The notes: generated by a model from the sequence alone, not told the origin. A stretch of 47,201 bases of DNA from Bdellovibrionota bacterium (GCA_049436045.1 JBMTHG010000002.1:1-47201); one strand, 5' to 3'; counted from the stretch's first letter, positions 239 through 42,039 are shown. Numbers and translations are program-made.

Positions 239-338
239 AGCTTAATCCCCCTCCTTATTATGTTATCATTTTCAGAAGCTTTGATGCAGTGGGCGGCATA
301 TCGCTCTAAATATTTAAAATCATTTATTTTTTTAAAAT

Positions 339-1947: not shown

Positions 1948-2122
1948 GCTGATTTCACCGCATTTTCCCACTTGACCGAAGCAGGGGCAAAATCTACTTG
2001 TATGGGTCATGAAATCGAAATCTTCGACGAAAAATCGTTTTTTGGGCTGGCAGAACACCCCGATTCAGCAAGCTAGTTTTGGCTCATCCACAAGAGGTGG
2101 AAGTTACAATCATCGTTTTAAA

Positions 2123-2590: not shown

Positions 2591-2591
2591 G

Positions 2592-2987: not shown

Positions 2988-3140
2988 AATCCTTCATTCT
3001 TTTCTGGAATTCTTCTCTCCGGCAAGATTTGCGGCTGTGTTTTGGGCTTTTGACTCATAGCTTCAAAAAAATTTTTGCATGTCAAATCTTTGTCAGGGCT
3101 CTGCAGCTTAGTCTTCATGGTATACTAATTGCATCCTCTT

Positions 3141-4718: not shown

Positions 4719-4728
4719 ATCTAAAGCT

Positions 4729-5787: not shown

Positions 5788-5856
5788 GGCATCCAGATAA
5801 AAATTGCATAAATGTGTGACTGTTAGAGGCTCTTTCGGTTAAGCTGAATTCGAAAA

Positions 5857-8529
5857 ATGGCAAATTCCTTTCTTAAAAAGTTACTGGGGTTCACAAGCGA
5901 GCGAGAGGTAAAAAAACTAATACCTCGGGTCAATCAGATCAACAATCTAGCCGCTGAGATAGAAGCTCTTTCAGACGAAGCCTTAAAAAACAAAACCATA
6001 GAATTTAAAGAGCGACTGGCGGGCAAGGAAAGTCTCGACGATATTTTGCCCGAAGCCTTTGCCTGTGTTCGTGAAGCTGCGTGGCGATCGCTGAAAATGC
6101 GGCATTACGATGTGCAATTAATTGGGGGAATGGTTTTACATAGCGGCCGAATCGCCGAGATGAAAACGGGCGAGGGAAAAACTTTGATGGCAACTCTGCC
6201 TCTCTATCTCAACGCTCTCGAAGGAAAAGGCGCTCACCTCGTCACGGTGAACGACTATTTGGCGCGGCGTGATGCGGATTGGATGCGACCGGTTTTTGAA
6301 AGTTTGGGGTTAACGGTAGGGGTGATCGTTCACGGCCTTTCGGATGCTCAACGTCAAGAGGCCTATGCGTGTGACATCACTTATGGCACAAACAATGAGT
6401 TTGGCTTTGATTATCTGCGAGACAATATGAAAGTCACGACGAATAGTTTGGTTCAGAGAGATCTACACTATGCCATCGTGGATGAGGTCGATAGTATCTT
6501 GATCGACGAAGCTCGAACGCCTCTCATCATTTCTGGCCCCGTCAATGAAACGACAGATAAATATAAGCTCATCAATCAGGTAATTCGATTTTTAAAGCGA
6601 GACGTTCACTTCATCATCGACGAAAAAGTTCGATCTGTGCATCTGACGGATGAGGGTGTTGAGGAATTACAGCGGCGCCTGCGCATCGAAAATTTGTATG
6701 ATCCCGAGCACATCGAATTAGTGCATCATGTGGATCAAGCGCTAAAGGCGCATTTCATTTTTAGGAAAGACATTGATTATGTTGTAAAAGATGGAGAGGT
6801 CGTGATTGTCGATGAGTTTACTGGACGGATCATGCCAGGCCGACGATATAGTGACGGTCTTCATCAGGCGATTGAAGCAAAAGAAGATGTTGAGGTAGCC
6901 CAAGAAAATCAAACTCTAGCATCGATCACTTTTCAGAATTACTTTCGAATGTTCAAAAAGTTGGGCGGCATGACAGGAACAGCAGAGACCGAGGAAGAAG
7001 AATTTTCTTCGATCTATAATTTGGCGGTCGTCGCAATTCCAACTCATCGACCGATGATTCGAAATGATTATGCCGATGTTGTTTTTAAAACTGAAGCGGC
7101 AAAGTTTCGTGCCATCGTAAAAGATATCAAAGAGAGAAATTTAAAGGGCCAGCCGATTTTGGTGGGCACCACTTCAATCGCAAAATCTGAGCGCTTGAGT
7201 GAGTTGCTTGAACGGCAGGGCGTGAAGCATGTGGTTTTGAATGCCAAACAGCACGAGCGAGAAGCTCAGATTGTGGCTCAAGCTGGCCAGATGGGTTCTG
7301 TCACGATCGCGACAAATATGGCGGGTCGAGGAACGGATATTGTGCTCGGACCTGGAGTGAAAGAGGCGGGAGGTCTTTATATTTTAGGCTGTGAACGACA
7401 TGATTCACGTCGAATCGACAATCAGCTTAGAGGCCGTGCCGGTCGACAGGGCGATCCGGGAGAAAGTCGTTTTTATCTTTCGCTTGAAGATGATCTGATT
7501 CGAATTTTTGCCGGTGATCGAATGCTAAAGATCATGAACTTTTTGGGCATGGAGGAAGATGAGCCCATTGAAGCAAAGATGATTTCAAATGCGATTGAGG
7601 ATGCGCAAAAGCGAGTCGAGGCGCAGAATTTTGATCGACGAAAACACCTTCTGAAATATGACGACGTCATGAATTATCAACGAAAGATTGTTTATTCATG
7701 GCGAAGAAAAATTCTTTTCAAAGAAGAGATTGAGTCTGAAGTTCTTGAAGTGGCTCATGAGTGTTTAGAGACGATTATCAATGAGTGCATTCCCGCTCGA
7801 GCCAAAATGGATCAATGGGATTGGAGCTCTTTAACGCAAGAGACCGAAAGACTTTGTTCAAAAGACTTAAACCTCCCGACGATAAAGGCTCAAATCGAAA
7901 GCGGAAAATTAAGTATTAACAGCGATCAGGATCTTTTCGAGGCCATGTTTGACGAGTGGCTACTTCTCTACAAAAAGCGAGAAGAAGAGCTTTCGCCGGT
8001 TATTTTGCGACGCTTAGAGCGAATGCTTCTCTTGCATACGCTTGATGATCGATGGAAAGAGCATTTGCTTGATATGGATCATTTGCGAGAGGGAATTAAC
8101 CTGAGGGGCTACGCTCAGAAAGATCCTATTTTAGATTATCAAAATGAGAGCTTTCGACTTTTTCAGAATATGTTTTTGAGAGTCAAAATGGAGTTTCTAG
8201 AGAAGCTTCATCGAGTTCAAATTCAAGTTGAAGCGAGTCCCAATGAGTCAGAGTCTGAAGTCTCTGAGGAGCGAAGAAGTCGTTTGGAGTCAGAGCTGGA
8301 TCGCCAACAAGAAGAGCGCGCCGAGAGGGCTCGAAGGCTGGGAGAAATTGGGGCGCGATCAGCGGAATCCTCAAAAGTGGCCGCACCGATGAAGCGATCT
8401 GAGGAAAAAGTAGGTCGAAATGACCCTTGCCCTTGCGGTAGCGGTAAAAAGTTCAAAAAGTGTCACGGAGCAAACTCCCAAGGCTTTGAGCCGAGCGCTA
8501 ACGTAAAAAGTGCTGCCAAAAATAAATAA
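5857..8529 (+). CDS. secA: Preprotein translocase ATPase SecA
   Basis: The DEAD-like motor motifs are [28 protein letters not shown] and [10 protein letters not shown]. The C-terminal zinc-binding motif is [18 protein letters not shown]. About 20 aa follow the zinc finger. Confidence 0.97.
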
Positions 8530-16767: not shown

Positions 16768-17547
16768 ATGAAAGAGATCTCGATCGTTTCATGGAATATC
16801 AATGGGTTGCGAGCCGTTTTAAAGAAAGGCCTGAACGACTTTCTTGAGCAGCGAAAGCCAGATGTTGTTTGCTTGCAAGAGATTAAATGCTTTGAAAATC
16901 AGTTAGATGAAAAAGAGAAGTCGGAGCTCGAACAAGCTTATCAGCTTTATTGGCATCCTGCCGAGCGCCCCGGATACAGCGGTGTGATGAGTCTTGATCG
17001 AGGATTGGTCAAAGGCACTCAATTTGGTTTTGGCCTCAAAAAATTTGATTCTGAGGGGCGCGTGCTCATTCATGATTTCGGCGATTTTGAGCTTTTGAAT
17101 TGCTATTTTCCAAATGGTGGAGCGAGTGAAGAGAGACATTTTTTTAAAATGGATTTTCTGAAAGAATTTCTTCAATTCCTAAAAAAGCGGCAGAAAGAAA
17201 AGCCTTTGATTGTGACGGGCGATATCAATATCGCTCACAAAGAAATAGATATTCATGATCCTGTTAGACTGGATGGTGAGAGCGGATTTAAACCTGAGGA
17301 GAGGGCTTGGATGGATGAATTGCACGCTGCAGGTTTTCAAGACGTCTTTCGTCATTTTTTTCCTGACCAGCAAGATGAGTATAGTTGGTGGTCTTATCGG
17401 GCGGGTGCACGTCAAAGAAATAAAGGCTGGAGAATCGATTATTTCATCGCTTCAAATCAGATCTTAGATCGAGTTTCTTCGATTCAGCATTTGCCTAAGA
17501 TTCTAGGTTCAGATCATTGCCCTTTAGAGCTAAAAATTCAGGTCTAG
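16768..17547 (+). CDS. xthA: Exodeoxyribonuclease III (AP endonuclease)
   Basis: VSWNINGLRA, CLQEIK, GDINIAH, WSYR...GWRIDY and SDHCPL motifs. Confidence 0.9.
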   Translation: MKEISIVSWNINGLRAVLKKGLNDFLEQRKPDVVCLQEIKCFENQLDEKEKSELEQAYQLYWHPAERPGYSGVMSLDRGLVKGTQFGFGLKKFDSEGRVLIHDFGDFELLNCYFPNGGASEERHFFKMDFLKEFLQFLKKRQKEKPLIVTGDINIAHKEIDIHDPVRLDGESGFKPEERAWMDELHAAGFQDVFRHFFPDQQDEYSWWSYRAGARQRNKGWRIDYFIASNQILDRVSSIQHLPKILGSDHCPLELKIQV

Positions 17548-19049
17548 GCTTTGAAGGCGTCGGCTTCAGGCAATGAGTTTTCTTGATATTCTTTGCCATC
17601 AAAGCTCAAAAGTCGGAATTGATTTTGAATATTCGTTTGAATATGAACCGGTCTCTTCCAGCACTTTTGAAGGTGCATGAGGGTATCTTTGGCCTTTGCC
17701 AACTGAATCTCACTCGCTTCATAGCGATGCCAAAGATAAAGCTCACCACGATTTTTATAATTGGCATCGACAACGAAAATTCGAGGGTGCCCTCGATTCG
17801 TGAGTTGAAATAAAAGCTGTTGCTTTATTTTTTCAAACTCGCGGGATGCAATTTCATACTCATCCGACTTGGGGTTTTTCTGAAAAGTAAAGAGCTTGTG
17901 TTCGGCGCAAAACTCTGGCGTTAAAAATTCGTCGATAAACATCACATCATTATAGACTTTTCTGACTTCAAAAATCTTTTGTCTTCCAAGCCCTAGATTT
18001 TTATTCCAAGATTTCTTTTCTGTCAGGTTTGGGCAGTTATCATATTCAAGACCAAATTTTCCAGTATTCCATCTCTCTTCAATATCTCTGAAGAGTTCAA
18101 TTCCAATCTTATAAGGATTAAATCTTCCTCCCGCCATCGACACTGTTCCGGCATGAGAGTTGGCATAGTCGATAATTTCAGAATCTTCTAATTTATGCCG
18201 AGTCATGATGTGAGAGTGCCAATAACTTGCCCAGCCCTCGTTCATGATTTTCGTCTGCGCCTGAGGAAGAAAATAATAAGCTTCTTCGCGAATGATCTCT
18301 AGAGTCTCTCTTTCCCAGTTTTCTAGTGGGGCATATTGAATCAAAAATCCAAGAATATCTTGATCAGGTTTTTCAGGAATTCTTTTTTGTTTTTCAAGGG
18401 CATCGATGAGCTTTTGTTTTTGCTGCTCAAGAAACTCAGGTGGATTGATGAACTTATCCATATAATCTTTTGATTTAAGTTTTCCTGGACTAAGACGAGA
18501 TGGATCAATTTCAAAGTTTTCTGGCATGGCACTTGCGATCTTGCCAAAGCGCGCATCTGGATCAATGAGATTATCGATCGAGAGGCAGACATCAATAAAA
18601 GACTCAACACGCTCAACGCCGAGGCGCTCCATAAAACGGCGAATCTTCACACCATGATTTGCCATCATATCGACAGCTTTTCGGTGAGTGTGAGAGAAAA
18701 ACATATTGTTCTTAAAAAAATCAGCGTGTCCATAAACATGAGCCATCACCAATTTTTGATCCATCGTAGTGTTGCCCTTCATCAAATAGGCAATGACAGG
18801 ATCATTGTTGATCACCATTTCATAAATTTTCGAGAGCCCGTAGTTGTAGCTTTTTGAGAGGCGTTCGTAGTCCATTCCAAATGACCAATGAGGATATCGA
18901 TTCGGAAAACCGCCATAAGCGGCCAGCTGATTCATTTCATCGTAATCAACGATTTCAAAAATTGTAGTGTAAAAATCTAGACCATAAGAGACGGCGATTT
19001 TTTCAATCTCTTCTTTGTGCTGTGCAAGTTCTAGAGGCAGATCAGCCAT
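17544..19049 (-). CDS. spoVR: SpoVR/YcgB family protein
   Basis: [38 protein letters not shown]...[14 protein letters not shown] is the SpoVR family core. It is the third gene of the prkA-yeaH-spoVR triad. Confidence 0.9.
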
Positions 19050-19094
19050 AACTTATTTTATCGTGAATTTCTTAAAGCGTCGACCTGAAGGCCA

Positions 19095-20213
19095 TTAATA
19101 ACCTTTATTTAAGAACTCTTTAATCGAGTCGTAGATGGCCTCTTTGTTGGGAATCCTAGACGCAATGATTCTTTCGGCTGAGGCCTCTTTGCTGAAATGC
19201 TCCGTCAGATCTCTGAAAAATTGCCCGCTTCCATAGAGACTCTCGACTTGACCGTAGCAGAACATATTGACCTTAGGCAGAATCTTGTCTTTCAAAAGAT
19301 GAAAGCACTTTTGAGAATCATCAGCGCTCCAATTGTCGCCATCTGAGAAGTGAAAGGGGTAGATATTCCACTCTTGCGGAGGAAAGTGTTTCTCAATCAT
19401 TTCTAAACAGAGCTGATAGGCTGAAGAAATGATCGTTCCTCCTGATTCTCGGGTTGAGAAAAAAGTCTCTCGATCAACCTCATGAGCGGCAGCATCGTGA
19501 ATAATGTATCGAGTTTGAATCCCTTTATATTGAGATCTCAGCCATGTATCGATCCAGAATGACTCTGCGCGTACGATTTCTTTTTGCTCGTCGCCCATAG
19601 AGCCTGAAACGTCCATCATAAAAATAATAACGGCAGAGTTGTTCTCAACAGGCTTAATTTTATAAGACCGATAACGAAAGTCTCGAGATTGGGGAATGAT
19701 TCGCGGATCTTCTTGATCGTAGTCTCCCATGCTGATGTTTCTCTTTAAGGCCTCTTTATAAGTGCGTTTGAAATGAAGAAGAGATTTAGGCCCCAGCTGA
19801 TGAATCGAGTTGTATTTTGTTCTCTCAGCAAGAATATTTTTATCACCCCGCGGCTGAATTCGTGGAAGGCCAAGTTCTGTTCCTAGAATTTCAGCCATCT
19901 CTTCAAAGCTGATGTCGACCTCTTGAATGTGAGCTCCAGGGGTGTTGCCCGCTTGGCCAGCACCATCTTGCGGATCTCCGGCCTGGCCCAGCGAATCGCC
20001 CTCTTTTCCATCGCCAGCTCCAACTCCTTGTTGATCATTTTTGCCAAACTCAAAGTGGGGGAGATCAATGCTCGGAACAGGAATGCTGATGTATTCTTTG
20101 CCTTTTACGCCGAGCATTTCGCCATGAGAAATATACTTTCGCAGATCTTTTTTGATCTTGCCTTTGATGATATTTCTAAAGCGAGCGTGATCGCTGTTGA
20201 TTTTTAAAAACAT
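19095..20213 (-). CDS. yeaH: YeaH/YhbH family protein (DUF444, vWA-like)
   Basis: N-terminal [18 protein letters not shown], a Gly/Asp-rich linker, and the MIDAS-like FMMDVSGSM motif. It starts 8 nt after the prkA stop. Confidence 0.85.
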
Positions 20214-20221
20214 GATTTCGT

Positions 20222-22315
20222 CTACGATTTATCTCTGACGTCTCCCCGAGCAAAAATAGAAGCCACAAAGTTAAGCACATCGGTAGCGCTTTCGTCACTG
20301 TATCCGAAGTTCTTCACTAATCGTGATTTAACAACGTCTATTTTTTCTTGGGTCTCTTTATCTACGACATTTGAAACTAAGCTTGTGAGCTTGATCGAAT
20401 CTTTTTGATCTTCAAAGAGTTTCAATTCAAGCGCCTTATGAAGCCTCTCATTTGTTTTGTAGTTAAAAGTTTTTCCATCAACGGCGAGAGCTCCGATGTA
20501 GTTCATGATTTCTCGTCTGAAGTCATCTTTTCTTGAATCTGGAATATCTATTTTCTCTTCGATGCTTCTCATGAGCTTTTCGTCTGGCTCTTCATATTGA
20601 CCCGTGAATTTATTTTTCACTTTTTCTTTCTGAGTATAGGCCTTCACAGCATCAATATAATTGGCACAAAGTTTTGTGATCGAGTCTTCATCGGCCGAAA
20701 TCGCTCTTTGAACCTCGTTTTTTACAATATCTTCATATTCACTTCTCACGATGCCGAGCAATTCTCGATAGCGCTTTTTGATTTCTTCATTCGAAATTAG
20801 CGAGTGAGCTTTTAAGCCACCTTCGAGTTCATTGAGAACCATGAAAGGGTTAATCGACTGAGCTTCATTTGAAACTAAAGCGTTTGAAATCTTATCTTGA
20901 ATATATCGAGGTGAGATTCCTTCAAGCGCTTCTCTTTTAACCTCTTTTCGAAGCTCTTTGATGTTGTCTTCGGTGAATCCTGGAAGAGTTTTGCCATCAT
21001 AGAGTTTGAGTTTTTGAATCAAGCTTAGATTAGCTTTGCTTGGCTCCTCAAGACGGGTGAGTACGGCCCACATCGCTGCCATCTCTAAAGTGTGAGGAGC
21101 GATATGTTTTCCTTTTACACGAACTTCATTGTAATCTTTTTTGTAGATCTTGATCTCCTCATTCCACTTGGTGATGTAGGGGATATCAATCTTCACCGTT
21201 CGATCGCGAAGTGCTTCCATGAATTCATTGTTTTGCAGTTTTCGATATTCCGGCTCATTCGTATGGCCGATGATCACTTCATCAATGTCGGTTTGAGGAA
21301 ACTTCTTTGGCTTGATTTTGTGTTCTTGCGAAGCGCCTAACAGATCATACAAGAAGGCTACATCTAGCTTTAGAACTTCAATAAACTCAATCAATCCACG
21401 ATTGGCCACGTTGAATTCGCCATCAAAATTAAAGGCTCTCGGGTCAGAGTCACTTCCGAAAAGAGCGATTTTTCTGTAGTTTAAGTCGCCCGTGAGCTCT
21501 GTGGAGTCTTGATTCTTCTCATCTTTGGGTTGAAAAGTCGCAATTCCGCTTCGTTTCTTTTCAGAGAGCTCAAGACGACGAATTCTCACATTTTCTAAAA
21601 CTTTTCGATAATCGCCGCCGTAGTGCTCTAAAAGCACTTGATAAATGAATCGACAAAATGGATTAAGTTCTCCCTCAATTCGAATCTTGTCTTCAGCAGC
21701 TCGATCTTTATTGAGGGTGTTAAGAACCTCAGCACGAACTTCTGGTGGCAAAAGCTTTAAGGGCTCTTCGTTCATGGGGCTTTGTGCTTCTAAGACACCT
21801 TCACCAAAAATGGGTTTGCCCTCAAAATAAATGGGTTCTTTGAGAACCCAGCTGTAGGTGAAAAGTCGACCAGCTTGAGTTTTTGAATAATGCTCCATTC
21901 CCTTTTTCAAAAGTCTTACGATCGTCGATTTTGAGCTGCCGACTGGACCATGAAGCAAAATCACTCGTCGCTCGGGGCCGTATCCTTTTGCGGCCGCTTT
22001 TAAAACGCTCACGAGTTTCATCAACGGCAAATCAAGACCAAAGATGGCGTCTCTGCCGTGATCGATCGGATCATCAAAAAAATTATAATGAATAATAGGC
22101 TTCTTGGCGTCGATGTACTCGCGGGTTCCGTAAGACATAATCATGTCATAGAGACGTTGATGAGCATTGCGGGCGATGCCGGGCTCTTCTTCAATCAGCT
22201 TTAGATAATCCCAAAAACTTCCCGTCCAATTCATCTCACGATAGACATCGAGATGTTTGGGATCAGATAGAATTGATTCAATTCGGGATTGAAGACCAGA
22301 GTCGCCTCTTTGCAT
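20222..22315 (-). CDS. prkA: PrkA/YeaG family serine protein kinase (AAA+ N-terminal domain)
   Basis: Walker [13 protein letters not shown], at the typical ~650-700 aa length. The PrkA C-terminal region is conserved, and the gene has the expected synteny with yeaH and spoVR. Confidence 0.92.
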
Positions 22316-22880: not shown

Positions 22881-23588
22881 ATGCTTCAAGTTTTCTGCGA
22901 TTTTGATGGAACTATTTCTGAAGAAGATAGCTTAAAGCTTTTGTTCCATCATTTTTTGCCCGATCAGTGGCCGGCCTTGCAGGCCCAAATGTACTCCAAA
23001 AAAATTTCAGAGAAAGAGGCTCTTTCTTTAGCTTTAGAACTAATGCCGGTTTCGCCAAAAGAGGCTCGTGATTGGATCTTAGATCGAGTGAAGTTGGATC
23101 CGAGTTTTTTTGAGTTTGCGAATTGGTGTCGAAAGCAGGGTTTCGATCTTCAAATTTTGAGTGGGGGCTTTGATATTTTCATTCATGCTTTGTTTGAAAG
23201 AGACATGATCTTTCACCAGAAAGTGACTTCAAATCAGTTAAGAGATGCCCATTCTTGGAACCTACGAAAATCTTCGGATTCTCGTGACATTTGCGAAGAC
23301 TTTACTCATTGCAAGTGTGCCAGCATGAAGCAACTCACTCGACCAGATGCAAGCTTGGTTTATATCGGAGACGGCTGGACGGATTTTTGCCCGGCCAAAA
23401 AGATGGAATATGTCTTTGCCAAAAAAGATCTGAAAGATTTCATGAAGAGATCAGATAAAAAATTTTTTGAGTTCTCAAACTTTTTTGACATTCAAAAAAC
23501 TTTGGAGGCTCTTCTCACTAAAAATCAAATCGGTAGCCTAGGCTTAAGCGATGAATCTTCGATTTTGATTGAGCCTCTTGAAGCTTGA
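22881..23588 (+). CDS. HAD-IB family phosphatase, MtnX-like
   Basis: CDFDGTIS nucleophile motif, FLPDQWPAL, ILSGGFDIFI and YIGDGWTDFCPA. The architecture and length (235 aa) match my recollection of Bacillus MtnX. No other methionine-salvage genes are nearby. Confidence 0.7.
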   Translation: MLQVFCDFDGTISEEDSLKLLFHHFLPDQWPALQAQMYSKKISEKEALSLALELMPVSPKEARDWILDRVKLDPSFFEFANWCRKQGFDLQILSGGFDIFIHALFERDMIFHQKVTSNQLRDAHSWNLRKSSDSRDICEDFTHCKCASMKQLTRPDASLVYIGDGWTDFCPAKKMEYVFAKKDLKDFMKRSDKKFFEFSNFFDIQKTLEALLTKNQIGSLGLSDESSILIEPLEA

Positions 23589-24945
23589 ATCCTGCGCGAT
23601 TGCCCTCGCCACTAAAGCTTTTTGATAGGTCTTCAAATCGGTAGCCGAGAATAATCTCCTGATCTTTTAAGCCGAGGCTTTTTAAATCCCAGGCCAGACT
23701 TCCACCATACTGAAGAAGCATTTTTTGAGAATTGGGAGTTCCGGTTTGAATGATACCCTGTTCCGTTGATTGAAGTGGACCTTCACTAAATTGATAAAAC
23801 AATAGAAGACCCAAATATCCCTGAAGGCTTAAGAAATAGGGGGATTGCAGTTTCGGACGAAAGGCAATCTCGCCGTAATAGCCAATATTGCTGAACAAAA
23901 TTGGCTGAGCGAGATTTTTATCTCTGAGCTGATTCACGCTAAAAAGATGCCACTGAAATCGAGCCGCTAGTTCAGGCTGAAGAAGCCACTTTTTGATTTG
24001 AAAATCGCGTGAAGCAAAAATTTCGACAGACAAGCGGTGCCATTGGGCTAAAGCATCAGCCGCCTCAATTTGGGCATTATTTCTTTTCACATCAGCTTGA
24101 AGAGCGCTGACCTCATATTGAGCACGCGCCCCCGCATCGACAGAGCCAAACCATCTCCGAAAAATCGAAAACCCAAACTGAAGGTCGATTCCTTCTAAAC
24201 TATAATCGATCAATGGAATGTTGGGGTAAGCCCCACCAACCAAAGTAAAAACTCGCTCTTGATATTGTTGCCAGCCCAGATCAAATTCTAGGGAATACTT
24301 CCACTCCTCAGGTGACTTTGTTTTTTCTGTCACAGACTCGGTGGGAGTGGTTATGAGTTCAAGGCTATCTACTTTTTTTAAAGTGGCGGGAATCTCAATT
24401 CGCTGCTGACTTTTTTGGTCTTCGAGCTCTAAGGCTTCGGTTTGAACAGCTTCTCGTTCGAGCGAAGGGGTATAAGACTGTTCGGTCGATCGCGAAACCT
24501 CTGTTTGTGAGCTAAGATCGCCTAAATACTCTTTTCTGATAAAGCCTTTAATAGGGTATTGATTCTCAAGAAAATACTCGACTTGAAAAAATTCTGCTTC
24601 CTCTCCAAGCACTTTTAGTTTGTCGGCTTGTCGAACCAGCAAGAGCACGCGAGCCTCATTACTGGGTTGGGCTAAAATCTGAGCGACCCGACTTTTGATC
24701 TGAGTTTCAAAGGGAAAGCTTAAGATTGGGGCGCTCTCTTGAGATTCCATTTTTGTTTCAGCAGCCTCAGTTTGAACAGCAGCCGACTCTTCAGAGGGCG
24801 ACGGTTCCTCTTTAGAAGATGGTTCCTCTACGGAAGATGGCTCCTCCACGACGAAAACAGTTTCGGCGAAACTTAAACTAGAAGCGATAATCAAAGCGAA
24901 GCAACAGTGAATGTATAAAAATAGTTTTTTCAAGAGATGCATCAT
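23518..24945 (-). CDS. Secreted composite protein (called OMP-1 here): acidic Pro/Ser/Glu repeat, SH3-like domain, C-terminal outer-membrane beta-barrel
   Basis: Signal peptide LLKKLFLYIHCCFALIIASSLSFA/ETV. A tandem VEEPSS/VEEPSS/KEEPSPSEES repeat follows. The SH3b-like stretch is RVAQILAQPSNEARVLLLVRQADKLKVLGEEAEFFQVEY...KGFIRKEYL. The last ~260 aa are strand-rich and end in LSLGYRFDF (terminal Phe). The start is ATG 24945 or 24942; the ORF track gives GTG 24951. Confidence 0.6.
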   Translation of the reverse strand: MMHLLKKLFLYIHCCFALIIASSLSFAETVFVVEEPSSVEEPSSKEEPSPSEESAAVQTEAAETKMESQESAPILSFPFETQIKSRVAQILAQPSNEARVLLLVRQADKLKVLGEEAEFFQVEYFLENQYPIKGFIRKEYLGDLSSQTEVSRSTEQSYTPSLEREAVQTEALELEDQKSQQRIEIPATLKKVDSLELITTPTESVTEKTKSPEEWKYSLEFDLGWQQYQERVFTLVGGAYPNIPLIDYSLEGIDLQFGFSIFRRWFGSVDAGARAQYEVSALQADVKRNNAQIEAADALAQWHRLSVEIFASRDFQIKKWLLQPELAARFQWHLFSVNQLRDKNLAQPILFSNIGYYGEIAFRPKLQSPYFLSLQGYLGLLLFYQFSEGPLQSTEQGIIQTGTPNSQKMLLQYGGSLAWDLKSLGLKDQEIILGYRFEDLSKSFSGEGNRAGFKLQEAQSKSKIHRLSLGYRFDF

Positions 24946-26509
24946 CCTCACTCATGAAATCATAGCCAATTTGGCCCGAGATATTCGAGCGAAAACGATA
25001 AGAAAGGCTTAAATTTGCATAAAAATCTAAAGACTTTACCCGAATGGGATCTTGCGAGGAGATAGAGCGTGCGATTTCACGCTGACTTCTAAAGAATTGA
25101 AAGTTGCCCTCGATGAAGTATTTCTCATTGGGAATCCAAGAAATATTCTGATTCAGGCTATAGAAGCTGGATTGAAATCTCTTTTGATAAGAGAGGCTAG
25201 TGTCGGTGTCGATATTTTTTGGCCAATTGAGCCGAAGGCCAAGATCACCTCCATAGGCGTTTTTCTTGTTGATGAGCCCAAGATTTTCCTCTTCGGGCTC
25301 TGAGGGATCTGACTCGGGTGTTGGATTTAAAAAGATTTTATCAGAGTCAAAAGTTCGTCTTTCATAGCGCCCAGCAATATAAGGCTGAGCGAAGCGATTG
25401 ATTCGATACGAAACTTTTGTATCTACTCGGTAGCGATGAGATTGATCCAGGCGATCTCCCACTCGCTCTCTTTGAAGGCTTCCATCGTCTGTGAGGTATT
25501 GAACAGAAGAGGCTAAGAGATAGCGATCGATGCGAAATTGAGAAAGACCAAAATTTAATATCCAATTTTTGCTGGGGCGATAAAAAGCTCGCAAGCTAAG
25601 GTGGCTGCTGGATAAAGATTTATCTTTTATCGTGGGCAATTCAAGATGTGAATAATGAAAGAGACTCAGTTCAGGAATCGGAGTGAAATGGCTTCGACTA
25701 AAAAGACTAAATCGATTTAATCCGCCCTTAAAAGTTTCGACATAAAGATTTGAATCAAACAAAAATTTCACCTTTGAATCTTCAGCGAAGTCGGGAATGA
25801 AGTGAAAGGGAATGCCAAACGCAATTCTTTCATGGCTCAGATGTTTTGTGCGCGGATCAGGAGCCAAGCCAGCATAAACTCCTAAGGTCTTCGATTTTTT
25901 CTCATTCCAAGCCCAGTCTGTTCTTAAGCCATCGATGATAATGCCGCCCTCTAAAGATTGTCTTCCCAGCCTGGCCTGAAATAGCTGATTTCCCAATCGG
26001 AAGTCTTTCTCAGCGTAGAGATCGTTGAGATGAAGTCGATATTTTTTGCTTCCATAAAGAGTTCTAGAGTTCAGCAAATGAAATCTAAAATCGCCATCGA
26101 TGAAGGCTCGAAAGTAAGAGGATTTAAACTCTGCTTTTAAGCCAAGGCTTTGAAGAAGAGTGTTTCCGCTTTTAGTATCTTTTGCAGAAACTCCCTCGCC
26201 ATCAGAGCTAATGATTCGCTCAGCGATGATCTCATCGCCTTGAATGATTCTCTCAACACAGCACTGACCATCGGAGCAAGAGACATCATCTCTTTCTTTG
26301 CCATAAGCCACAAAGAGAGGTTCAAGATCGGCGATGTTCTCGGCGTCGCAGTTATCTGTGTCATAAACCTCAAGCACACTCACGCTTGCGAAATTGTCAG
26401 TGAGAAATAGCATCCAAGCGTCAGCATTTCCCTTCAAAGAATTTTCAGCCTGAAGAGGTCTGCTGAAAAGTAATCCGAAAGCGATGATCAAAAAATAAAA
26501 AAACCTCAT
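24878..26509 (-). CDS. Large predicted outer-membrane beta-barrel protein (called OMP-2 here), candidate porin partner of the multiheme cytochrome
   Basis: Signal peptide MRFFYFLIIAFGLLFSRPLQA/ENS, using ATG 26509, which overlaps the cytochrome TGA as ATGA. An N-terminal segment carries 4 Cys (CDAEN...CSDGQCC). About 430 aa of alternating amphipathic strands follow (e.g. LSLRAFYRPSKNWILNFGLSQF, YRVDTKVSYRINRF, FYANLSLSYRFRSNISGQIGYDF), ending in LLLRFDYRF. Confidence 0.65.
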   Translation of the reverse strand: MRFFYFLIIAFGLLFSRPLQAENSLKGNADAWMLFLTDNFASVSVLEVYDTDNCDAENIADLEPLFVAYGKERDDVSCSDGQCCVERIIQGDEIIAERIISSDGEGVSAKDTKSGNTLLQSLGLKAEFKSSYFRAFIDGDFRFHLLNSRTLYGSKKYRLHLNDLYAEKDFRLGNQLFQARLGRQSLEGGIIIDGLRTDWAWNEKKSKTLGVYAGLAPDPRTKHLSHERIAFGIPFHFIPDFAEDSKVKFLFDSNLYVETFKGGLNRFSLFSRSHFTPIPELSLFHYSHLELPTIKDKSLSSSHLSLRAFYRPSKNWILNFGLSQFRIDRYLLASSVQYLTDDGSLQRERVGDRLDQSHRYRVDTKVSYRINRFAQPYIAGRYERRTFDSDKIFLNPTPESDPSEPEEENLGLINKKNAYGGDLGLRLNWPKNIDTDTSLSYQKRFQSSFYSLNQNISWIPNEKYFIEGNFQFFRSQREIARSISSQDPIRVKSLDFYANLSLSYRFRSNISGQIGYDFMSEDDASLEKTIFIHSLLLRFDYRF

Positions 26510-28674
26510 GGGAGAGCACTCCCTCGCCGGATATTCCAATCAATCGGAACATGACAGTTTTCACAGTTGGCCACATTTCGGCCCGAAGCATTGCTGTGCT
26601 GAGGAATATGGGGAACAAATGAATCGGAGTGACAAAAGAAGCAATCACTTGGAAGACCTTGGTAGATATTGTTCACATGACAAGAAGAGCACTCTAGATA
26701 GCGATGAATTCCAGTGAGTCGAAAGCCCGTGGTGTTATGCTGAAAGTGAGTGGGGAGCCAAGATGTTTGATAATGGCAATCGCCGCAGGTGTTGCCCATC
26801 TGCCCCAGATGGATATCATCTTTCTCATGGCACCAGGCACAGAACTCTCCAGTGCCTTGAAGATTGTTGTTCGTCGCATGACAGTCACTACATTCGAGTT
26901 GGTCGTGAAAACCTTCTAATTTAAAAAAGCCAAGATCATGCACCTTCTCTGCGTACTCAAGCTCAAAGCTATTCGTGCTATGACAGCTTTCACAATTGCT
27001 TCCCATTTCACCCTGATGAACATCATAGTGGCAATTCACACACTCGGTGGCGAGTTTTGCGCCAGCAATAAGCTTCACTTGATAGTCGCCCAACAGATGA
27101 TTTTCGTGACACTTTTGGCATGATAGCTCTGTATGTCTTCCCGTGAGTTTCCATCTTCCGATTTCTTCGTGCTTAAAAGACTTTACTTGCTTGAAGCCTT
27201 CGGTCACGTGACAGCTTGAACATTCATTTGACATGGCAGAGCCATGAGGATCGGCATGACAGGATTGGCAATTTGGATTGTCATTATTAGCCGGCATGTT
27301 TTTAAAAACCTGATCCACATGACAAGATAAACAAGCCACTTCGCGATGCTCTCCCGTGAGCGCGAAGTCTGTATTTTTATTATGATCAAATTGAATCCAA
27401 GAAAAGCTAGTCGTCACATGACAAAAAGAGCAGCTTTGATCAATCTCACGCTCGGGGTGAACATTTCGATGACAATCAGAACATTCATCAAACTTGAGAT
27501 TGGTGTAGCTTCCGGTGAAGTGACACTGTTGACAGTCAATCACCATATGTTTTCCATCAAGCGGAAACTCAGTCTTGGCGTGGCGCTCTAGATCAAAAGA
27601 AGAATCATAAAATTTTCGAGTGGGGGAGTGACAGCTTTCGCAGCTTTGATCTGCGAATTGACCGTTGTGATAATCGCCGTGACAATCTGAGCACTGATCA
27701 AATTGATCTGCAGGAACTTTGAAACTTTTTTTGTCTTGATAATGGCAACTCTCGCACTCAACGGCTTCATGATATCCCTCTAATGGAAACTTAGTTTTGC
27801 TATGATCAAATCCATTGGCTGCGATTTGGCCCTCTAGCAAGAGATGATCCCACTTTCGATAAACGCTGTGGCAGTTTGTGCACTCATTTCCAAAGGAGCC
27901 TTTGTGAGGGTCAGAATGGCAATCGGTGCACTGATCAAACTCAAGTGGAGCGAAAGTGGTGACTCGCTTCGTTTTTGGATCGGGTTCATGACATTCGGAG
28001 CATTCTACTTTTTTGTGCAAGCCTTCAAGTTTATAGCGAGTGGTGTCGTGATTGAATGGCATTTTCTTTCTGAGGCGCTTCCAATTCTCAATTCCTGTTG
28101 AATGACACTGCGTACACTCCAAAAGCTTTTTGTCTTTGAATTCGTGTTGGTAGTCATCTTGATGACATTCATAGCAAGTGGTGGGCGCGTTGAGATACGA
28201 GCGGGTTTCTGTTTTTGCTTTCGTCTTGTAATGCTCACGATAAGTCGTGTGGCAGTCATAACATTCCGTTTTGGCGTGTTGGCCGCGAAGAGGGTAGCCT
28301 GTATCCTTTTCGTGATTAAATTCATCGAGCCAGTTTTCTGGCGCAAAAATATCAAAGTCTAAACCTTCATGCTCCATATGACATGAGGAGCATTCGGTCT
28401 TGCCGGCGTGGTAACCCCAATTTTTTTCAATTCGAACTTTTATGTCGAGGTGACAATCCATACATTTTGCATTGTCGAGGTCTCCGCCCAAGGTATTGAT
28501 GTGACAGTTTGAGCAACCTTTTAGTGTGTCATACTCGGCATGACTTTTTGAAAGAGGGCCGGGAGATTGAGTGATCAGTTTTTTTAAGAATTCCTGAGCC
28601 TCCAACTGAACGGGCAGTTGAATAAAGATCAGCGCAAAAACAATCTGAAAAAACCCTCTCATCCCCAAGTCCAT
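26506..28674 (-). CDS. Secreted multiheme c-type cytochrome with 27 CXXCH motifs (nine triheme c7/c3-like modules)
   Basis: I counted 27 CXXCH motifs in the 722-aa translation, and every Cys I can see lies in one. The signal peptide is MRGFFQIVFALIFIQLPVQLEA/QEF. The recurring module is F-x-H-x5-7-L-x-G-x-H-x3-5-CxxCH ... CxDCH-x-D-x-H-x-G-x4-6-CxxCH. The start is ATG 28674 or ATG 28662. Confidence 0.9.
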   Translation of the reverse strand: MDLGMRGFFQIVFALIFIQLPVQLEAQEFLKKLITQSPGPLSKSHAEYDTLKGCSNCHINTLGGDLDNAKCMDCHLDIKVRIEKNWGYHAGKTECSSCHMEHEGLDFDIFAPENWLDEFNHEKDTGYPLRGQHAKTECYDCHTTYREHYKTKAKTETRSYLNAPTTCYECHQDDYQHEFKDKKLLECTQCHSTGIENWKRLRKKMPFNHDTTRYKLEGLHKKVECSECHEPDPKTKRVTTFAPLEFDQCTDCHSDPHKGSFGNECTNCHSVYRKWDHLLLEGQIAANGFDHSKTKFPLEGYHEAVECESCHYQDKKSFKVPADQFDQCSDCHGDYHNGQFADQSCESCHSPTRKFYDSSFDLERHAKTEFPLDGKHMVIDCQQCHFTGSYTNLKFDECSDCHRNVHPEREIDQSCSFCHVTTSFSWIQFDHNKNTDFALTGEHREVACLSCHVDQVFKNMPANNDNPNCQSCHADPHGSAMSNECSSCHVTEGFKQVKSFKHEEIGRWKLTGRHTELSCQKCHENHLLGDYQVKLIAGAKLATECVNCHYDVHQGEMGSNCESCHSTNSFELEYAEKVHDLGFFKLEGFHDQLECSDCHATNNNLQGTGEFCAWCHEKDDIHLGQMGNTCGDCHYQTSWLPTHFQHNTTGFRLTGIHRYLECSSCHVNNIYQGLPSDCFFCHSDSFVPHIPQHSNASGRNVANCENCHVPIDWNIRRGSALP

Positions 28675-28733: not shown

Positions 28734-29381
28734 TCATGGTTTTTGCGGCGCCTGATCAAGATCGGCAAAGCTTGAGCTGAGTCTCGGTAAAAAGGGATGA
28801 ATGCTTGCACACAACTCCTTGTTAAAGGCTGTAAAACCCATTGTTGGTTTAGTTTTGAGAATCTCACTGATACTCATCCACTCCGAGCGATTCACTTTGA
28901 GCCGAATAAAAGGCACGGCTTTTTCTTCTCGCGTCCAAATGACACGAAGCTGAGCTTGAGCTGGAGTTTCATTTTGTTTGGCCTCTTCAGGAGTTTTCTC
29001 CCAATAAGGTGAAGAAGGCTTATTTTGATGCAGCAAAGCAAAAAACGAGAAATCAATTTCATCAATATCAGGATTTTCTCGAAAAGCCCGAGCAGGTGGA
29101 AGCTCTTCTCGATTTTGGCGCGGCGTGTTTTTTCCATAAAGAAAAGCGTGCAGAAATCTGCAAAAGATCTCTTGGTCTGGAATTACATTTTTTGTGACGA
29201 CGGAGTCTTCATACCAAACAGAGGTCTCCAGAACTTTTCCTTTTTTGCGAACCCCTTCTAGAGAATGCCGTCTCTCTTTGTGAAGAGAGCTAAGCGCCCA
29301 ATAGTTTGCTAGATCCTTTTTCTCTTTTGCGGAGGCCGTATTAAAAAAGACGAAAGCCAAGAGGAATACAAAGAAACGCAT
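28734..29381 (-). CDS. Hypothetical secreted protein (~215 aa)
   Basis: The ORF-track entry (28734-29453) is trimmed to ATG 29381, which gives the clean signal peptide MRFFVFLLAFVFFNTASA/KEKK. This start lies 4 nt after the stop of the upstream 65-aa ORF. No family recognised. Confidence 0.5.
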   Translation of the reverse strand: MRFFVFLLAFVFFNTASAKEKKDLANYWALSSLHKERRHSLEGVRKKGKVLETSVWYEDSVVTKNVIPDQEIFCRFLHAFLYGKNTPRQNREELPPARAFRENPDIDEIDFSFFALLHQNKPSSPYWEKTPEEAKQNETPAQAQLRVIWTREEKAVPFIRLKVNRSEWMSISEILKTKPTMGFTAFNKELCASIHPFLPRLSSSFADLDQAPQKP

Positions 29382-31205: not shown

Positions 31206-31991
31206 TTATTTTGAACTTTTGTTCGAAGACCAAAGAGATCCACGAGAAGGAATCCTAACAAAATTCACTTGTGATCGTCTGTTCGGCTCTTCTACCACTG
31301 ATTCTATTCCCTCTGATTCTGTCGAGGCTGTTTCTGCATTAGAAACCTGAGTTTTGATTTCGACAACTCCTTCATCTTCTGCAGGGCGCGCCAAAAGATG
31401 GGGAACTTGATCGGCCGCATCGGCCACTTCATTCGAATTCTCGACCTTCCCTTCTGCCGAGCTGGCTTTCCTTTGCTCGTTAATCTTATCTTTAGCTTTT
31501 CGCAAAGTGGCTTCGAGACTTACGATTTTTTCAACGAAGCAATCTTCATCAAAGCTTAAGTTGGCAGCTTCTGTTTTTGGAAAGAGCTGTGACAAAGTCG
31601 CCATCATTCCGATTTGAGTTAACTGCTGCTTTTCAGACGAATCTCGCAAGTAATCAAAGAGCTGAGCTTGGCTGGCTTCGAAAGACTTTATTCGGGCATG
31701 CTCAAGTTCCATTTTTTCTTGATGGCGCTTCTCTTCGCGTTTCTCTCTTGCTTCTTCTCGTTTAATCATTTCTTGTTGAAAAGCACTTAGGCCTTCAGAG
31801 TTTCCTTTTTCTTTTCCAGGAACGCTACCTTCTGTATTGGCTCCTGCTGTCGATTTAGTCTTTGGAGCTAATGCCTGGCTATTTGAAGCGCTCGAGTTTT
31901 GAGCCGCATTTTTTTTAACATCTCTCGGTGTCGCACAAGCAATAAAAATTTGAGATATACCGACGATCATTATTAGATTTACTACTTTCAT
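31206..31991 (-). CDS. Hypothetical lipoprotein, Ser/Asn/Glu-rich with a coiled-coil segment
   Basis: ATG 31991 is preceded by an AGGGGGA SD 7 nt upstream. The lipobox is MKVVNLIMIVGISQIFIAC. The charged coiled coil is QQEMIKREEAREKREEKRHQEKMELEHARIK. The ORF-track start at 32051 (ATGA overlap with the upstream gene) is an alternative. Confidence 0.55.
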   Translation of the reverse strand: MKVVNLIMIVGISQIFIACATPRDVKKNAAQNSSASNSQALAPKTKSTAGANTEGSVPGKEKGNSEGLSAFQQEMIKREEAREKREEKRHQEKMELEHARIKSFEASQAQLFDYLRDSSEKQQLTQIGMMATLSQLFPKTEAANLSFDEDCFVEKIVSLEATLRKAKDKINEQRKASSAEGKVENSNEVADAADQVPHLLARPAEDEGVVEIKTQVSNAETASTESEGIESVVEEPNRRSQVNFVRIPSRGSLWSSNKSSK

Positions 31992-32047
31992 TGTTAATCC
32001 CCCTTTAAGATTTTTTTGATTTTTAAAATTCTTTAGATTTTTTCTGG

Positions 32048-32818
32048 TCATCTCTGACTCTCTGTAGCTGTTTCGAAAATCACATTAAGCCCGCTTAATT
32101 CAGCCGCCTGATGTGCATTGGCAATCAAACACTCAACATCCTCATCGATTCGCGGAGGGGCTAGTTTGGCACCTCCATCTTGTTTTTCTTCTGAGGCCGA
32201 TGAGTTTTTGAAAAAGACGATTCTATCGGCCTCTGAATTTGCAGATGTTAGAACTAATCGGGGAGCCTCTGCATCCACTGAAGATGGCTCTGAATCGACT
32301 GAAGTCGCTGAAAAAGTTGAAATTTCTGCTCGTGGTGAGCTCACTGATCCAGAAGAGCTTTCTTTTTCTTCTCCAGTAATAGAGCCGACTAGAGACTTCG
32401 TATTGTCGATGATCTTTTCACCTTTTTCGAAAATCGATCCGTTTAAAACCGAAGCAAACAAAAGCATCATTCCCATGCCTTGAAACTGACTCCAGGCATC
32501 AGAGCGAGTGAGTGGTGCGCCCGCATAAGGGCTATTCGCTCTCGGAACAAAGCCAGTGTTGGCTTCCGAATTCCCTTGAATTCCAGAATTTTGCGAATTT
32601 CCAGAGTTTGATGATGGTAAACCAGAGTTTGAATTCGCGCGAGACTTGCCACGAGATTCGGCATCTTTGGCAAATTTTTCTCCCGCCGTGATTCTTGGTC
32701 CAGCGTCGCTACGGTATATGGTTTGATCTGAAGCTGGTACCGTGTTGGAACTGCAAGCAACTAACAATGGACTCGCCACTATGAGAAGCAGTGCAGTTCG
32801 CTTAAATTGAGCGAACAT
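32048..32818 (-). CDS. Hypothetical lipoprotein, low-complexity Ser/Asn/Gly-rich
   Basis: Signal peptide plus lipobox MFAQFKRTALLLIVASPLLVAC/SSN, with an AAAGGGGG SD upstream. It has an SNSGNSQNSGIQGNS low-complexity region and one internal hydrophobic stretch (GMGMMLLFASVLNGSIF). Confidence 0.55.
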   Translation of the reverse strand: MFAQFKRTALLLIVASPLLVACSSNTVPASDQTIYRSDAGPRITAGEKFAKDAESRGKSRANSNSGLPSSNSGNSQNSGIQGNSEANTGFVPRANSPYAGAPLTRSDAWSQFQGMGMMLLFASVLNGSIFEKGEKIIDNTKSLVGSITGEEKESSSGSVSSPRAEISTFSATSVDSEPSSVDAEAPRLVLTSANSEADRIVFFKNSSASEEKQDGGAKLAPPRIDEDVECLIANAHQAAELSGLNVIFETATESQR

Positions 32819-40938: not shown

Positions 40939-42039
40939 ATGTTGGCGAAAAATGAAGGCTCCATGGAACTCGCGTTTGAGGGCGGTTTAGCTCAGATTTT
41001 TAAAAAATCAGCCGGTGATACTTTTCGCGCTGAAAAAATACTGCTTCCTCAATATCAAGGATTGGTTGAGTTTGAAAATCTTCAAAGGCGCGAGTTTGAG
41101 ATTTTAAGCCGGCTCAATCATCCGAAAATATTAAAATGCTTTGAGCTAAACTTAGAGAGCCCAAAGCCGGGCGTTTTCACTCATGTTCTAGAATTGGAAT
41201 GGATCGAGGGCCTCTCTGTGCGAGATCTTATTTTTCAAGCGCGCTCTTGGAATTTAGAAGATCGAAAAAGTCTGGCCTTCAACTTTTTGAGACAAAGTTT
41301 AGAGATTTTTTCGTACTTAGAATCTCAGCACTTGATTCACTCTGACTTGAGTCCAGAAAATTTCATTCTCAATCGAGAGGGCAAACTTGTTTTGATCGAC
41401 TTTGCCTCTGCCTTTTTTGAAAATGATCCACCTTCAAAAAATTCAGCTCAGCTCACGGGTAAGAAAAGCTATCGAGCGCCTGAGCTACGTGAAGATGAAA
41501 GACCGACCTTTGCCGCTGAAACTTATAGTTTAGGCCGCATTTTTGAGGAGATTTTGGGACCAAAAAGTCTTCAGGATTCTCAGATCAAAAATTTGGCACA
41601 CCAACTGGTTTTTGATCGACAAGCAGTTCAGATCAATCAAATTCCTGAGGCCACCACAGATTTTTTTCAGAAAATTTTATGGAAAGACTTGAGTTCAAAA
41701 TCGCTGAAGCAGGTGACCTCTAAATTACAATCGGCAGGCTCATGGAAATGGTCATATTCTTTTTTGCCGATGATTTGGCTTTCTCTCTCAAGCCCCATCG
41801 AGATTCGAGCAGTGAGTGTGAACTCTATGCCTCCGACGACACTTTGCATCGAGGCTTTGAGTGTTTGTCATCAAGATACTCCGATAAAAAATATAAATTT
41901 AGCTCTGGGAGAATGGAGCGCAGAGTTTTTCTCAATCGGAGATCCTGATCAGAAATGGTCAAGAATTCTTAGCGTCAAACGGGATAAACCTTTGAAGTTC
42001 TTTGAAGACTTTCGCAATACTGTTAGTCTTAAAGAGTGA
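40939..42039 (+). CDS. Hanks-type Ser/Thr protein kinase-like protein (non-RD), with a C-terminal TM segment and an extracytoplasmic domain
   Basis: Subdomain equivalents are FRAEK (Lys), EFEILSRLNHPKILK (Glu), LIHSDLSPENFIL (HxD...N; HSD rather than HRD), IDFASA (DFG-like), YRAPEL (APE) and ETYSLGRIFEEIL. A hydrophobic stretch (WSYSFLPMIWLSLSS) and ~90 further aa follow. The start is ATG 40939; the ORF-track GTG 40900 is an alternative. Confidence 0.7.
   Translation: MLAKNEGSMELAFEGGLAQIFKKSAGDTFRAEKILLPQYQGLVEFENLQRREFEILSRLNHPKILKCFELNLESPKPGVFTHVLELEWIEGLSVRDLIFQARSWNLEDRKSLAFNFLRQSLEIFSYLESQHLIHSDLSPENFILNREGKLVLIDFASAFFENDPPSKNSAQLTGKKSYRAPELREDERPTFAAETYSLGRIFEEILGPKSLQDSQIKNLAHQLVFDRQAVQINQIPEATTDFFQKILWKDLSSKSLKQVTSKLQSAGSWKWSYSFLPMIWLSLSSPIEIRAVSVNSMPPTTLCIEALSVCHQDTPIKNINLALGEWSAEFFSIGDPDQKWSRILSVKRDKPLKFFEDFRNTVSLKE

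Follow-up and report, generated by a model that had tools for sequence, protein, structure and literature searches.

The OMP-2 locus

A stretch of 47,201 nucleotides (nt) from a Bdellovibrionota bacterium (GCA_049436045.1 JBMTHG010000002.1:1-47201), called the window in the following, was analyzed computationally. On its minus strand it contains the gene for an outer-membrane beta-barrel protein, here named OMP-2, which directly follows the gene for a c-type cytochrome with 27 hemes. The two genes also stand side by side in close relatives, and homologous pairs were found in other phyla. OMP-2 is probably the outer-membrane component of a porin-cytochrome-type module, which consists of two co-inherited genes and whose barrel represents a new family. 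The features of the gene pair are listed here with their coordinates in the window (aa, amino acids).

26506..28674, minus strand: 27-heme c-type cytochrome, 722 aa, Sec signal, lipobox absent (open reading frame and motif count)
26506..26509, minus strand: ATGA junction, in which the OMP-2 ATG (26509-26507) shares 2 nt with the cytochrome TGA (26508-26506)
26519..26523, minus strand: GGGAG Shine-Dalgarno-like motif, exactly 9 nt 5' of the OMP-2 ATG and within the last cytochrome codons (R-R-G-S)
24878..26509, minus strand: OMP-2, a 543-aa outer-membrane beta-barrel precursor of an unannotated family (open reading frame, translation, AlphaFold2)
26447..26509, minus strand: signal peptide of OMP-2, residues 1-21, MRFFYFLIIAFGLLFSRPLQA (translation; helix in the model; putative cleavage site from the LQA/E pattern)
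26396..26440, minus strand: barrel strand 1, residues 24-38 (DSSP E24-38; after deletion of the insert, colinear with strand 1 of P0014, a distant homolog)
26162..26395, minus strand: Cys-rich insert of 78 aa, residues 39-116 (C54, C78, C83, C84), between strands 1 and 2
24881..26161, minus strand: barrel strands 2-22, residues 117-543, which carry conserved motifs (G-R, (V/I)DG and GL-x-P-x-P-x-T) and whose lumen face is charged

The start codon of OMP-2 lies in frame with the mechanical open reading frame 24878-26539, and the frame of 543 codons closes at 24878. The genes for OMP-2 and the cytochrome overlap by 4 nt, and on the minus strand the junction reads ...CGGCGAGGGAGTGCTCTCCCATGAGG.... 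This ATGA junction is kept in 8/8 orthologous loci, which are all loci containing the junction, at an OMP-2 identity of about 32-40%. In most of these eight loci, a GGAG-like motif is located 7-11 nt 5' of the barrel ATG, where it is embedded in the conserved C-terminal tail of the cytochrome. Because the junction is conserved among the orthologous loci, it goes beyond chance. By itself, a 4-nt ATGA overlap is ordinary. It occurs at two other same-strand gene pairs of the window as well (32048-32051 and 42036-42039), and it marks tight operon linkage, not stoichiometry. An earlier note on this DNA had derived a matched stoichiometry from the overlap, which was an over-reading, since ATGA overlaps are common. 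The other features pointed out there, namely the overlap itself, GGGAG 9 nt upstream, the signal peptide, four cysteines and the ...RFDYRF end, are all present, and the tight linkage to a multi-heme cytochrome is conserved in 8/8 orthologous loci.

The DNA that encodes the tail of the cytochrome (...W-x-I/V-R-R-G-S-G...), 26512-26530 on the minus strand and the equivalent positions of the orthologs, also carries the ribosome-binding motif of OMP-2. Part of the conservation of the tail peptide may therefore reflect the embedded Shine-Dalgarno motif and not protein function. A promoter and terminator scan of the cluster gave counts at the shuffle expectation.

The N-terminus of OMP-2 (MRFFYFLIIAFGLLFSRPLQA/EN) is similar to a Sec signal, and the C-terminus (...LLLRFDYRF) is of the outer-membrane type. 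The protein contains exactly four cysteines (C54, C78, C83 and C84). OMP-2 has no Pfam or NCBIfam family match, and a PDB sequence search with the profile of its family revealed no relative. Four relatives were found in a search of 5.8 billion proteins, and a profile search of 1.84 billion cluster representatives added about five further full-length members and some fragments. Only about 5-9 full-length relatives thus stand against 1.84 billion representatives. By genome and metagenome scans, the family was placed in metagenome-assembled genomes (MAGs) of Bacteriovoracaceae/Bdellovibrionota. Full-length orthologs show pairwise identities of 32-40%. With the combined alignment of the superfamily (A6) as query, nothing but the close orthologs already known and one weak match was retrieved, and no named relatives were added. 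The OMP-2 family is rare and unannotated.

Structure of the barrel and the Cys-rich insert

The AlphaFold2 model of OMP-2, based on an alignment of 10 sequences, consists of 22 strands, with a mean predicted local distance difference test (pLDDT) of 77.6 and a predicted template modeling score (pTM) of 0.65. Its strands mostly reach pLDDT values of 85-95. For the distant homolog P0014, which lacks the insert, a model from 47 sequences was obtained with exactly 22 strands, a pLDDT of 93.1 and a pTM of 0.81. More than 20 strands had been expected in the earlier note, which is borne out by both models; a small barrel of 16 or fewer strands is not predicted. The connectors between the strands of P0014 are all 2-15 residues long. 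P0014 is therefore an open barrel, in which no loop or plug of its own fills the lumen.

Two residues of strand 1, G27 and D38, are conserved in both the OMP-2 group and the distant group. Conservation is higher for lumen-facing than for lipid-facing residues (0.63 and 0.56, p=0.016), with 26 versus 14 invariant positions, and the lumen face of OMP-2 carries 28 K/R and 22 D/E. By simple barrel geometry, the C-alpha diameter was estimated to be about 39-41 Å for 22 strands, compared with 46-48 Å for 26 strands. Foldseek searches of the PDB with the models of OMP-2 and P0014 revealed generic barrels only, with template modeling (TM) scores of 0.3-0.55. These were porins, specific channels, TonB receptors and ushers.

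The Cys-rich segment had been described before as preceding the barrel, but it is an insert between strands 1 and 2. After deletion of residues 41-114, the OMP-2 alignment and the distant family are colinear from residue 20 up to the C-terminus (probability 99.9, E 2e-36), which identifies the Cys-rich module as an insertion in the connector of the first two strands. Even-stranded outer-membrane barrels have both termini in the periplasm. With this standard topology the connector between strands 1 and 2 would be extracellular loop 1, so the insert would be exposed at the cell surface. The alternation of long and short connectors fits a topology with loop 1 outside. The insert itself is modeled with a pLDDT of 55-73. 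Its cysteines are spaced C54-x23-C78-x4-C83-C84, and a CXXC motif occurs in none of the 10 full-length family members aligned. All four cysteines are present in 7/10 of these members, while among the three most divergent ones two keep two cysteines and one keeps three. Judged by these sequences, the exposed Cys domain probably forms two disulfides, or one or two in the divergent members. In the profile search of 1.84 billion representatives, no homolog of the Cys-rich segment was found outside the Bdellovibrionota subfamily.

The 27-heme partner cytochrome

The cytochrome contains 27 CXXCH motifs, no other cysteines and 59 histidines, which is enough for bis-His ligation of all hemes. It is the only CXXCH-rich open reading frame in the window. 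The protein is built from nine tandem c7-type triheme units of 70-85 aa, each with the pattern F-x-H...L-x-G-x-H...CxxCH. Four stretches match the Pfam family PF14522 (Cytochrome_C7) with an E-value of 3.8e-28. The score for TIGR03508 is 38 bits against a cut-off of 192, and a phmmer search of the PDB gave no match at E<1e-3, 3OV0 included.

Exactly 27 CXXCH motifs are found in 7/7 full-length orthologous cytochromes (window, L001, L002, L003, L005, L014 and L015). This fixed number of hemes suggests a constraint on length. The orthologous cytochromes are 52-58% identical and thus better conserved than the barrels (32-40%). Across the seven orthologs, conservation is highest in triheme domains 5-6 (residues 359-496), where neither insertions nor deletions occur; this weakly hints that the constrained part of the chain is the middle rather than the C-terminus. 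GSU1996, a cytochrome with 12 hemes, is about 12 nm long. Scaled from this protein, the cytochrome of the window may be an elongated heme wire of about 25 nm, which would be enough for the periplasm and the outer membrane.

Distant relatives in other phyla

The profile search of the 1.84 billion representatives also returned about 25 weak matches of 400-560 aa. By hhalign, this distant group is homologous to OMP-2 over the whole barrel (probability 100, E 3e-41), with the common motifs G-R, (V/I)DG and G-L-x-P-x-P-x-T. The distant relatives do not have the Cys-rich region. No Pfam family could be assigned to them, and sub-threshold matches to BBP2_2 were seen in 8/47. Where names were retrieved, they are named only 'hypothetical protein', among them 10 distant matches looked up by name. 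Their MAGs are Desulfobacterota-like, Gemmatimonadales and others, with labels such as Deltaproteobacteria, Nitrospinae and Gemmatimonadales. In 7/7 distant contexts examined, the barrel gene directly adjoins genes for multi-heme cytochromes, which carry 10-66 hemes. The neighbours of the barrel gene are as follows.

L006: at least 45 CXXCH motifs, 1-3031, cytochrome gene cut by the contig end
L007/L008: 66 CXXCH motifs in 1576 aa, L007 2231-6961
L009: at least 16 CXXCH motifs, cytochrome gene cut by the contig end
L010: 64 CXXCH motifs, 3419-7993
L011: 16 CXXCH motifs
L012 (Gemmatimonadales): two neighbours with 36 and 10 CXXCH motifs, GTGA overlap
L013: 30 CXXCH motifs, reversed gene order, TGATG junction, beside ResB/CcsA

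The cytochrome of the window is homologous to the giant cytochromes of the distant relatives (30-32% identity, E 1e-88 to 1e-92), and they have an N-terminal SPGPL..H motif and c7-type repeats in common. Since the barrels are homologous and the cytochromes are homologous, the pair is co-inherited across phyla. Of all observations, this cross-phylum pairing argues most strongly for a functional link, independently of the synteny within the Bdellovibrionota clade.

Several further observations were made at the distant loci. The giant cytochromes of L006, L007 and L010 show Pfam matches only to repeated c7/c3 and MtrC-like domains. A membrane protein of 320 aa with two W-x3-H-x13-H motifs precedes the pair in L007 (1268-2227) and L010 (2433-3398), and no counterpart was found in the window by tblastn. 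In six distant loci, a gene for an iron-sulfur flavoprotein with Fer4 and Pyr_redox_2 domains is located near the pair (L006 4654-5859, L007 8275-9627, L009 2521-3705, L010 10462-11760, L012 1-1672 and L013 3002-4360). This flavoprotein may be a redox partner in the cytoplasm or on the membrane side. The barrel-cytochrome pair of L013 (4420-7964) has a thioredoxin-like gene and genes of cytochrome c maturation system II (ResB, CcsA-type) as neighbours.

Neighbouring genes in the window

Two further genes flank the pair in the cluster.

28734..29381, minus strand: small secreted protein of about 215 aa from M25, signal MRFFVFLLAFVFFNTASA, two cysteines, first gene of the cluster
23518..24945, minus strand: downstream gene; its product combines a signal peptide with a Pro/Glu/Ser-rich linker, an SH3b-like segment and, at the C-terminus, a barrel of about 260 aa whose last residues are GYRFDF

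The order small protein, 27-heme cytochrome and OMP-2 is kept in every orthologous locus that reaches far enough upstream. Orthologs of the small protein (about 215-230 aa, two conserved cysteines) were found upstream of the cytochrome in L001, L002, L005, L014 and L015. The small secreted protein has no Pfam or NCBIfam match and no heme motif. The downstream protein, which has a length of about 450-510 aa in the orthologous clusters, has no Pfam or NCBIfam match either, and its SH3b-like segment (...LLVRQADKLKVLGEEAEFFQVEY...) was assigned by eye only. Its gene is present in L001, L002, L005, L015 and L016 and absent from L014. The protein may act as an anchor to the peptidoglycan or as a second component in the outer membrane. 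Its gene begins within the 3' end of OMP-2, which it overlaps in a different frame by about 68 nt (24878-24945, minus strand), and the overlap includes the whole hydrophobic core of the signal peptide. Overlaps of a similar kind amount to 35 nt in L002 and to 86 nt in L005, L015 and L016. For a conserved stretch that codes in two frames, this overlap on the last barrel strands is unusually long.

The remaining genes of the window are housekeeping genes (DnaK, YifB, PrkA/YhbH/SpoVR, an RND pump and PolA). The triad of PrkA, DUF444 (YhbH) and SpoVR (17544-22315, minus strand) is located a few kb from the cluster, and its position is kept in L001, L005, L015 and L016. The synteny of the clade therefore reaches well past the cytochrome cluster. 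In addition, two adjacent open reading frames of 281 and 256 aa with a 4-nt overlap were found at 31206-32818 on the minus strand. Both are Ser/Asn/Glu-rich and lipoprotein-like, without family matches.

Comparison with known systems

Porin-cytochrome conduits are the main known route for electrons across the outer membrane of Gram-negative bacteria. Known are the Mtr/Mto/Pio systems, the Pcc/Ext systems of Geobacter, the predicted PCC3/PCC4 and Uet. The OMP-2 locus resembles MtrAB, MtoAB and PioAB in that the gene for an outer-membrane barrel adjoins the gene for a Sec-exported multi-heme cytochrome. The proposed principle would also be the same, with a heme chain insulated in a barrel and carrying electrons across the outer membrane. 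Like MtoAB and PioAB, the OMP-2 locus has no dedicated surface cytochrome. However, MtrB has 26 strands (24-32 are predicted for Mto/Pio), whereas 22 are predicted for OMP-2, and the partner of the barrel in MtrAB is a decaheme cytochrome of the MtrA/DmsE family and not a 27-heme polymer of c7 repeats.

The earlier note had seen a likeness to MtrB-type porins and their CXXC motif. This was not confirmed, as none of the 57 OMP-2 family members matched MtrB_PioB (PF11854) in hmmscan, with E-values of up to 10 allowed for 5 members and of up to 1 for 47 distant members. The cysteine pattern is C-x23-C-x4-CC, while the MtrB of S. oneidensis has an N-terminal CXXC at C42/C45 (PMC12175506). With Foldseek, MtrB (6r2q_B) reached rank 10 for OMP-2 with TM values of 0.33/0.29, which is no better than FimD, AlgE and MOMP, and it was absent from the top 50 matches of the P0014 model. 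Membership of OMP-2 in the MtrB/PioB family was rejected on these grounds (no profile match, 22 strands, no CXXC and a generic fold match). True MtrAB homologs were described in one paper for magnetotactic Bdellovibrionota; they belong to a family other than OMP-2. No match to a porin family of unrelated function was found for OMP-2.

In Geobacter Pcc systems (OmaB-OmbB-OmcB; ExtABCD, ExtEFG and ExtHIJKL), the gene for a porin-like barrel (about 20 strands, 400-550 aa) that has no Pfam annotation stands beside those for multi-heme cytochromes. In this respect they are similar to OMP-2, and their lineage is 'deltaproteobacterial' in the old sense, too. Their porin is flanked by a periplasmic octaheme cytochrome and an outer-surface lipoprotein cytochrome, whereas the window contains a single 27-heme cytochrome without a lipobox. 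None of the 33 profile matches that were looked up among the 1.84 billion representatives carries an OmbB or Ext name, and no NCBIfam model matched, with no direct sequence comparison made. A distant homology of the OMP-2 family to OmbB/Ext or PCC-type porins is possible.

PCC3 systems were described with a periplasmic cytochrome of 21-27 hemes, which was proposed to span the periplasm, with an extracellular cytochrome of 10-63 hemes and with porins of up to 42 predicted transmembrane segments (He et al., 2017, PMC5566968). PCC4 contains three small cytochromes with 4, 5 and 10 hemes (PMC5566968). Two W-x3-H-x13-H motifs are the reported signature of the inner-membrane component of PCC3/PCC4 and 'MHC + IMP' clusters (PMC5566968), and clusters of a multi-heme cytochrome (MHC) with a five-helix inner-membrane protein (IMP) are found in Fe(II) oxidisers (PMC5566968; Gallionellaceae pangenome, PMC10734462). 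The OMP-2 systems are similar to PCC3/PCC4 in the very long, repeat-built cytochrome with a porin alongside and in the protein with the di-heme b-type signature that precedes the pairs of L007 and L010. Unlike PCC3, the window contains no extracellular cytochrome and no inner-membrane protein, and 22 strands are predicted for its barrel.

The Geobacter proteins GSU1996 and GSU0592 (12 hemes each) and GSU2210 (27 hemes) were described as soluble periplasmic electron stores, and no barrel partner was discussed (PMC10138318). GSU2210 and the cytochrome of the window are alike in their tandem triheme c7-type domains and in their 27 hemes. This likeness is one of architecture.

TonB-dependent receptors also have 22 strands and gave the highest query-normalised TM values for the OMP-2 model (0.43-0.46). 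In contrast to these receptors, OMP-2 has neither a plug nor a TonB box, its loops are much shorter, and its additional module is inserted in loop 1 rather than N-terminal. An identity as TonB-dependent receptor was rejected, as PF07715 and PF00593 did not match and strand 1 follows directly after the signal peptide. An usher-like translocon was rejected as well, since the FimD/PapC top matches are generic (TM 0.3-0.5, about 9% identity) and no usher accessory domains are present. In the searchable literature, we found no report of an OMP-2-type system, nor of such a system in Bdellovibrionota/Bacteriovoracaceae.

Proposed mechanism and alternative explanations

Co-oriented, adjacent genes for a barrel and a Sec-exported multi-heme cytochrome were found in 8/8 orthologous loci and in 7/7 distant contexts. 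Since the OMP-2 ATG overlaps the stop codon of the cytochrome, both proteins would be made from a single mRNA, and translational coupling is probable. The barrel would fold around a segment of the cytochrome or dock it, and the heme chain would bridge the periplasm and the cell surface. With 22 strands in both models, a fit of the barrel to the cytochrome in size is plausible. Electrons would cross the outer membrane along the sheathed heme chain. The structure of the genes, the relationships of the families, the number of strands, the position of the insert and the conserved adjacency come from the analysis itself, whereas the physical insertion of the cytochrome, the direction of electron flow, the disulfides and the role of the insert are what we infer. 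The locus has no gene for an additional cytochrome at the surface, so the contact between the heme chain and its extracellular partner would be a direct one, or would take place inside the barrel or at its mouth. The 78-aa module with four cysteines in loop 1, which is specific for Bdellovibrionota, probably contains two disulfides and probably serves as a surface cap or docking element.

Several points weigh against this porin-cytochrome module. The synteny of the close orthologs includes housekeeping genes, so that conservation within the clade alone is weak evidence. No inner-membrane quinol-oxidising partner and no other redox genes were found in the 47-kb window. The barrel with 22 strands is narrower than that of MtrB with 26, so that the fit of a c7 chain is no more than plausible. 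The Cys-rich insert, which is modeled with low pLDDT, could fold into the lumen of OMP-2 and plug it. The known Bacteriovoracaceae are aerobic predators that are not known for extracellular electron transfer, and a search of the literature gave no report of it. Furthermore, c7 polymers of Geobacter, including the 27-heme GSU2210, are viewed as periplasmic stores and not as conduits (PMC10138318).

The periplasmic location of the Geobacter c7 polymers is also in line with a different role of OMP-2, namely that of a channel which admits a small soluble redox substrate (a metal ion, a chelate, a sulfur or selenium species or a shuttle) to a periplasmic cytochrome. The cytochrome would then be a reductase, an oxidase or a capacitor that never enters the barrel, and the Cys module of loop 1, as a possible constriction element, would constrict or gate the pore. 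The conserved charged lumen fits a selective channel, and ordinary porins, specific channels and TonB receptors are among the Foldseek matches (TM 0.3-0.55). However, the insert-less homologs are open and have short loops, and without an occupant they would be a large unregulated hole. A strict adjacency to cytochromes of 10-66 hemes in 7/7 contexts across phyla, in which the stop codon of one gene often overlaps the start codon of the other, would rather be expected for subunits of one complex, and the conserved exact heme count suggests that the spanning distance matters. Such a substrate channel is unlikely in our view, but it ranks first among the alternatives. It is followed by an export or assembly pore, which we consider quite improbable. 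Here OMP-2 would be an usher-like translocon that secretes, displays or assembles the cytochrome and is not its permanent sheath. The usher barrels FimD and PapC are among the top Foldseek matches, and the cytochromes with 64-66 hemes in distant relatives are far longer than any periplasm, so that much of the protein would be outside of the cell. However, with TM 0.33-0.52 and about 9% identity, the similarity to ushers is generic. The usher barrel is made of 24 strands and is accompanied by a plug and by N- and C-terminal domains; the plug and both of these domains are absent from OMP-2, and the cluster contains no chaperone or energy-coupling gene. A folded, heme-loaded chain of about 2-2.5 nm width in transit would in any case resemble a sheathed cytochrome at steady state.

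The last alternative is that there is no functional link at all, with OMP-2 as a mere operon neighbour of the cytochrome and the ATGA overlap as routine genome compaction. Overlaps of 4 nt are common, with two more in the window, and the region is syntenic among close relatives, housekeeping genes included. Yet the adjacency recurs in remote homologs with unrelated neighbourhoods, in L013 even with reversed gene order, and both partners are homologous. This cross-phylum linkage disfavours the operon-neighbour explanation, which ranks last and is very improbable.

The preferred reading of OMP-2 as the barrel of a porin-cytochrome module can be taken further, although this extension is speculative and rather unlikely. 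The cytochrome would be a 27-heme wire of fixed length, which is held by a minimal sheath of 22 strands around domains 5-6 (hemes 13-18), with about 12 hemes in the periplasm and about 9 at the surface. The disulfide-bonded module of loop 1 would form a collar at the surface, and the single cytochrome would exchange electrons with minerals, shuttles or even prey cells. If this were true, the same barrel family would sheath cytochromes of 64-66 hemes in other phyla, which would be the longest single-chain trans-membrane wires known.

Significance

Surveys of extracellular electron transfer (FeGenie and homology searches for Mtr/Pcc) find the described families only. As no Pfam or NCBIfam model exists for the OMP-2 family, it is missed by current annotation, although in several phyla its genes consistently stand next to those of multi-heme cytochromes that are among the longest (27-66 hemes). 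The family is new in that it is unannotated, differs in structure by its 22 strands, its minimal loops and, in one branch, an insert in loop 1, and is paired with a single very long c7-polymer cytochrome. If the module is confirmed, the family would provide a profile (alignments A2 and A4) for the screening of metagenomes and a simple two-gene module for the assembly of a barrel around a heme wire. It would also be a new, compact type of sheath with 22 strands and a single cytochrome, and it would extend putative extracellular electron transfer to the Bdellovibrionota, which are known for predation rather than for metal respiration.

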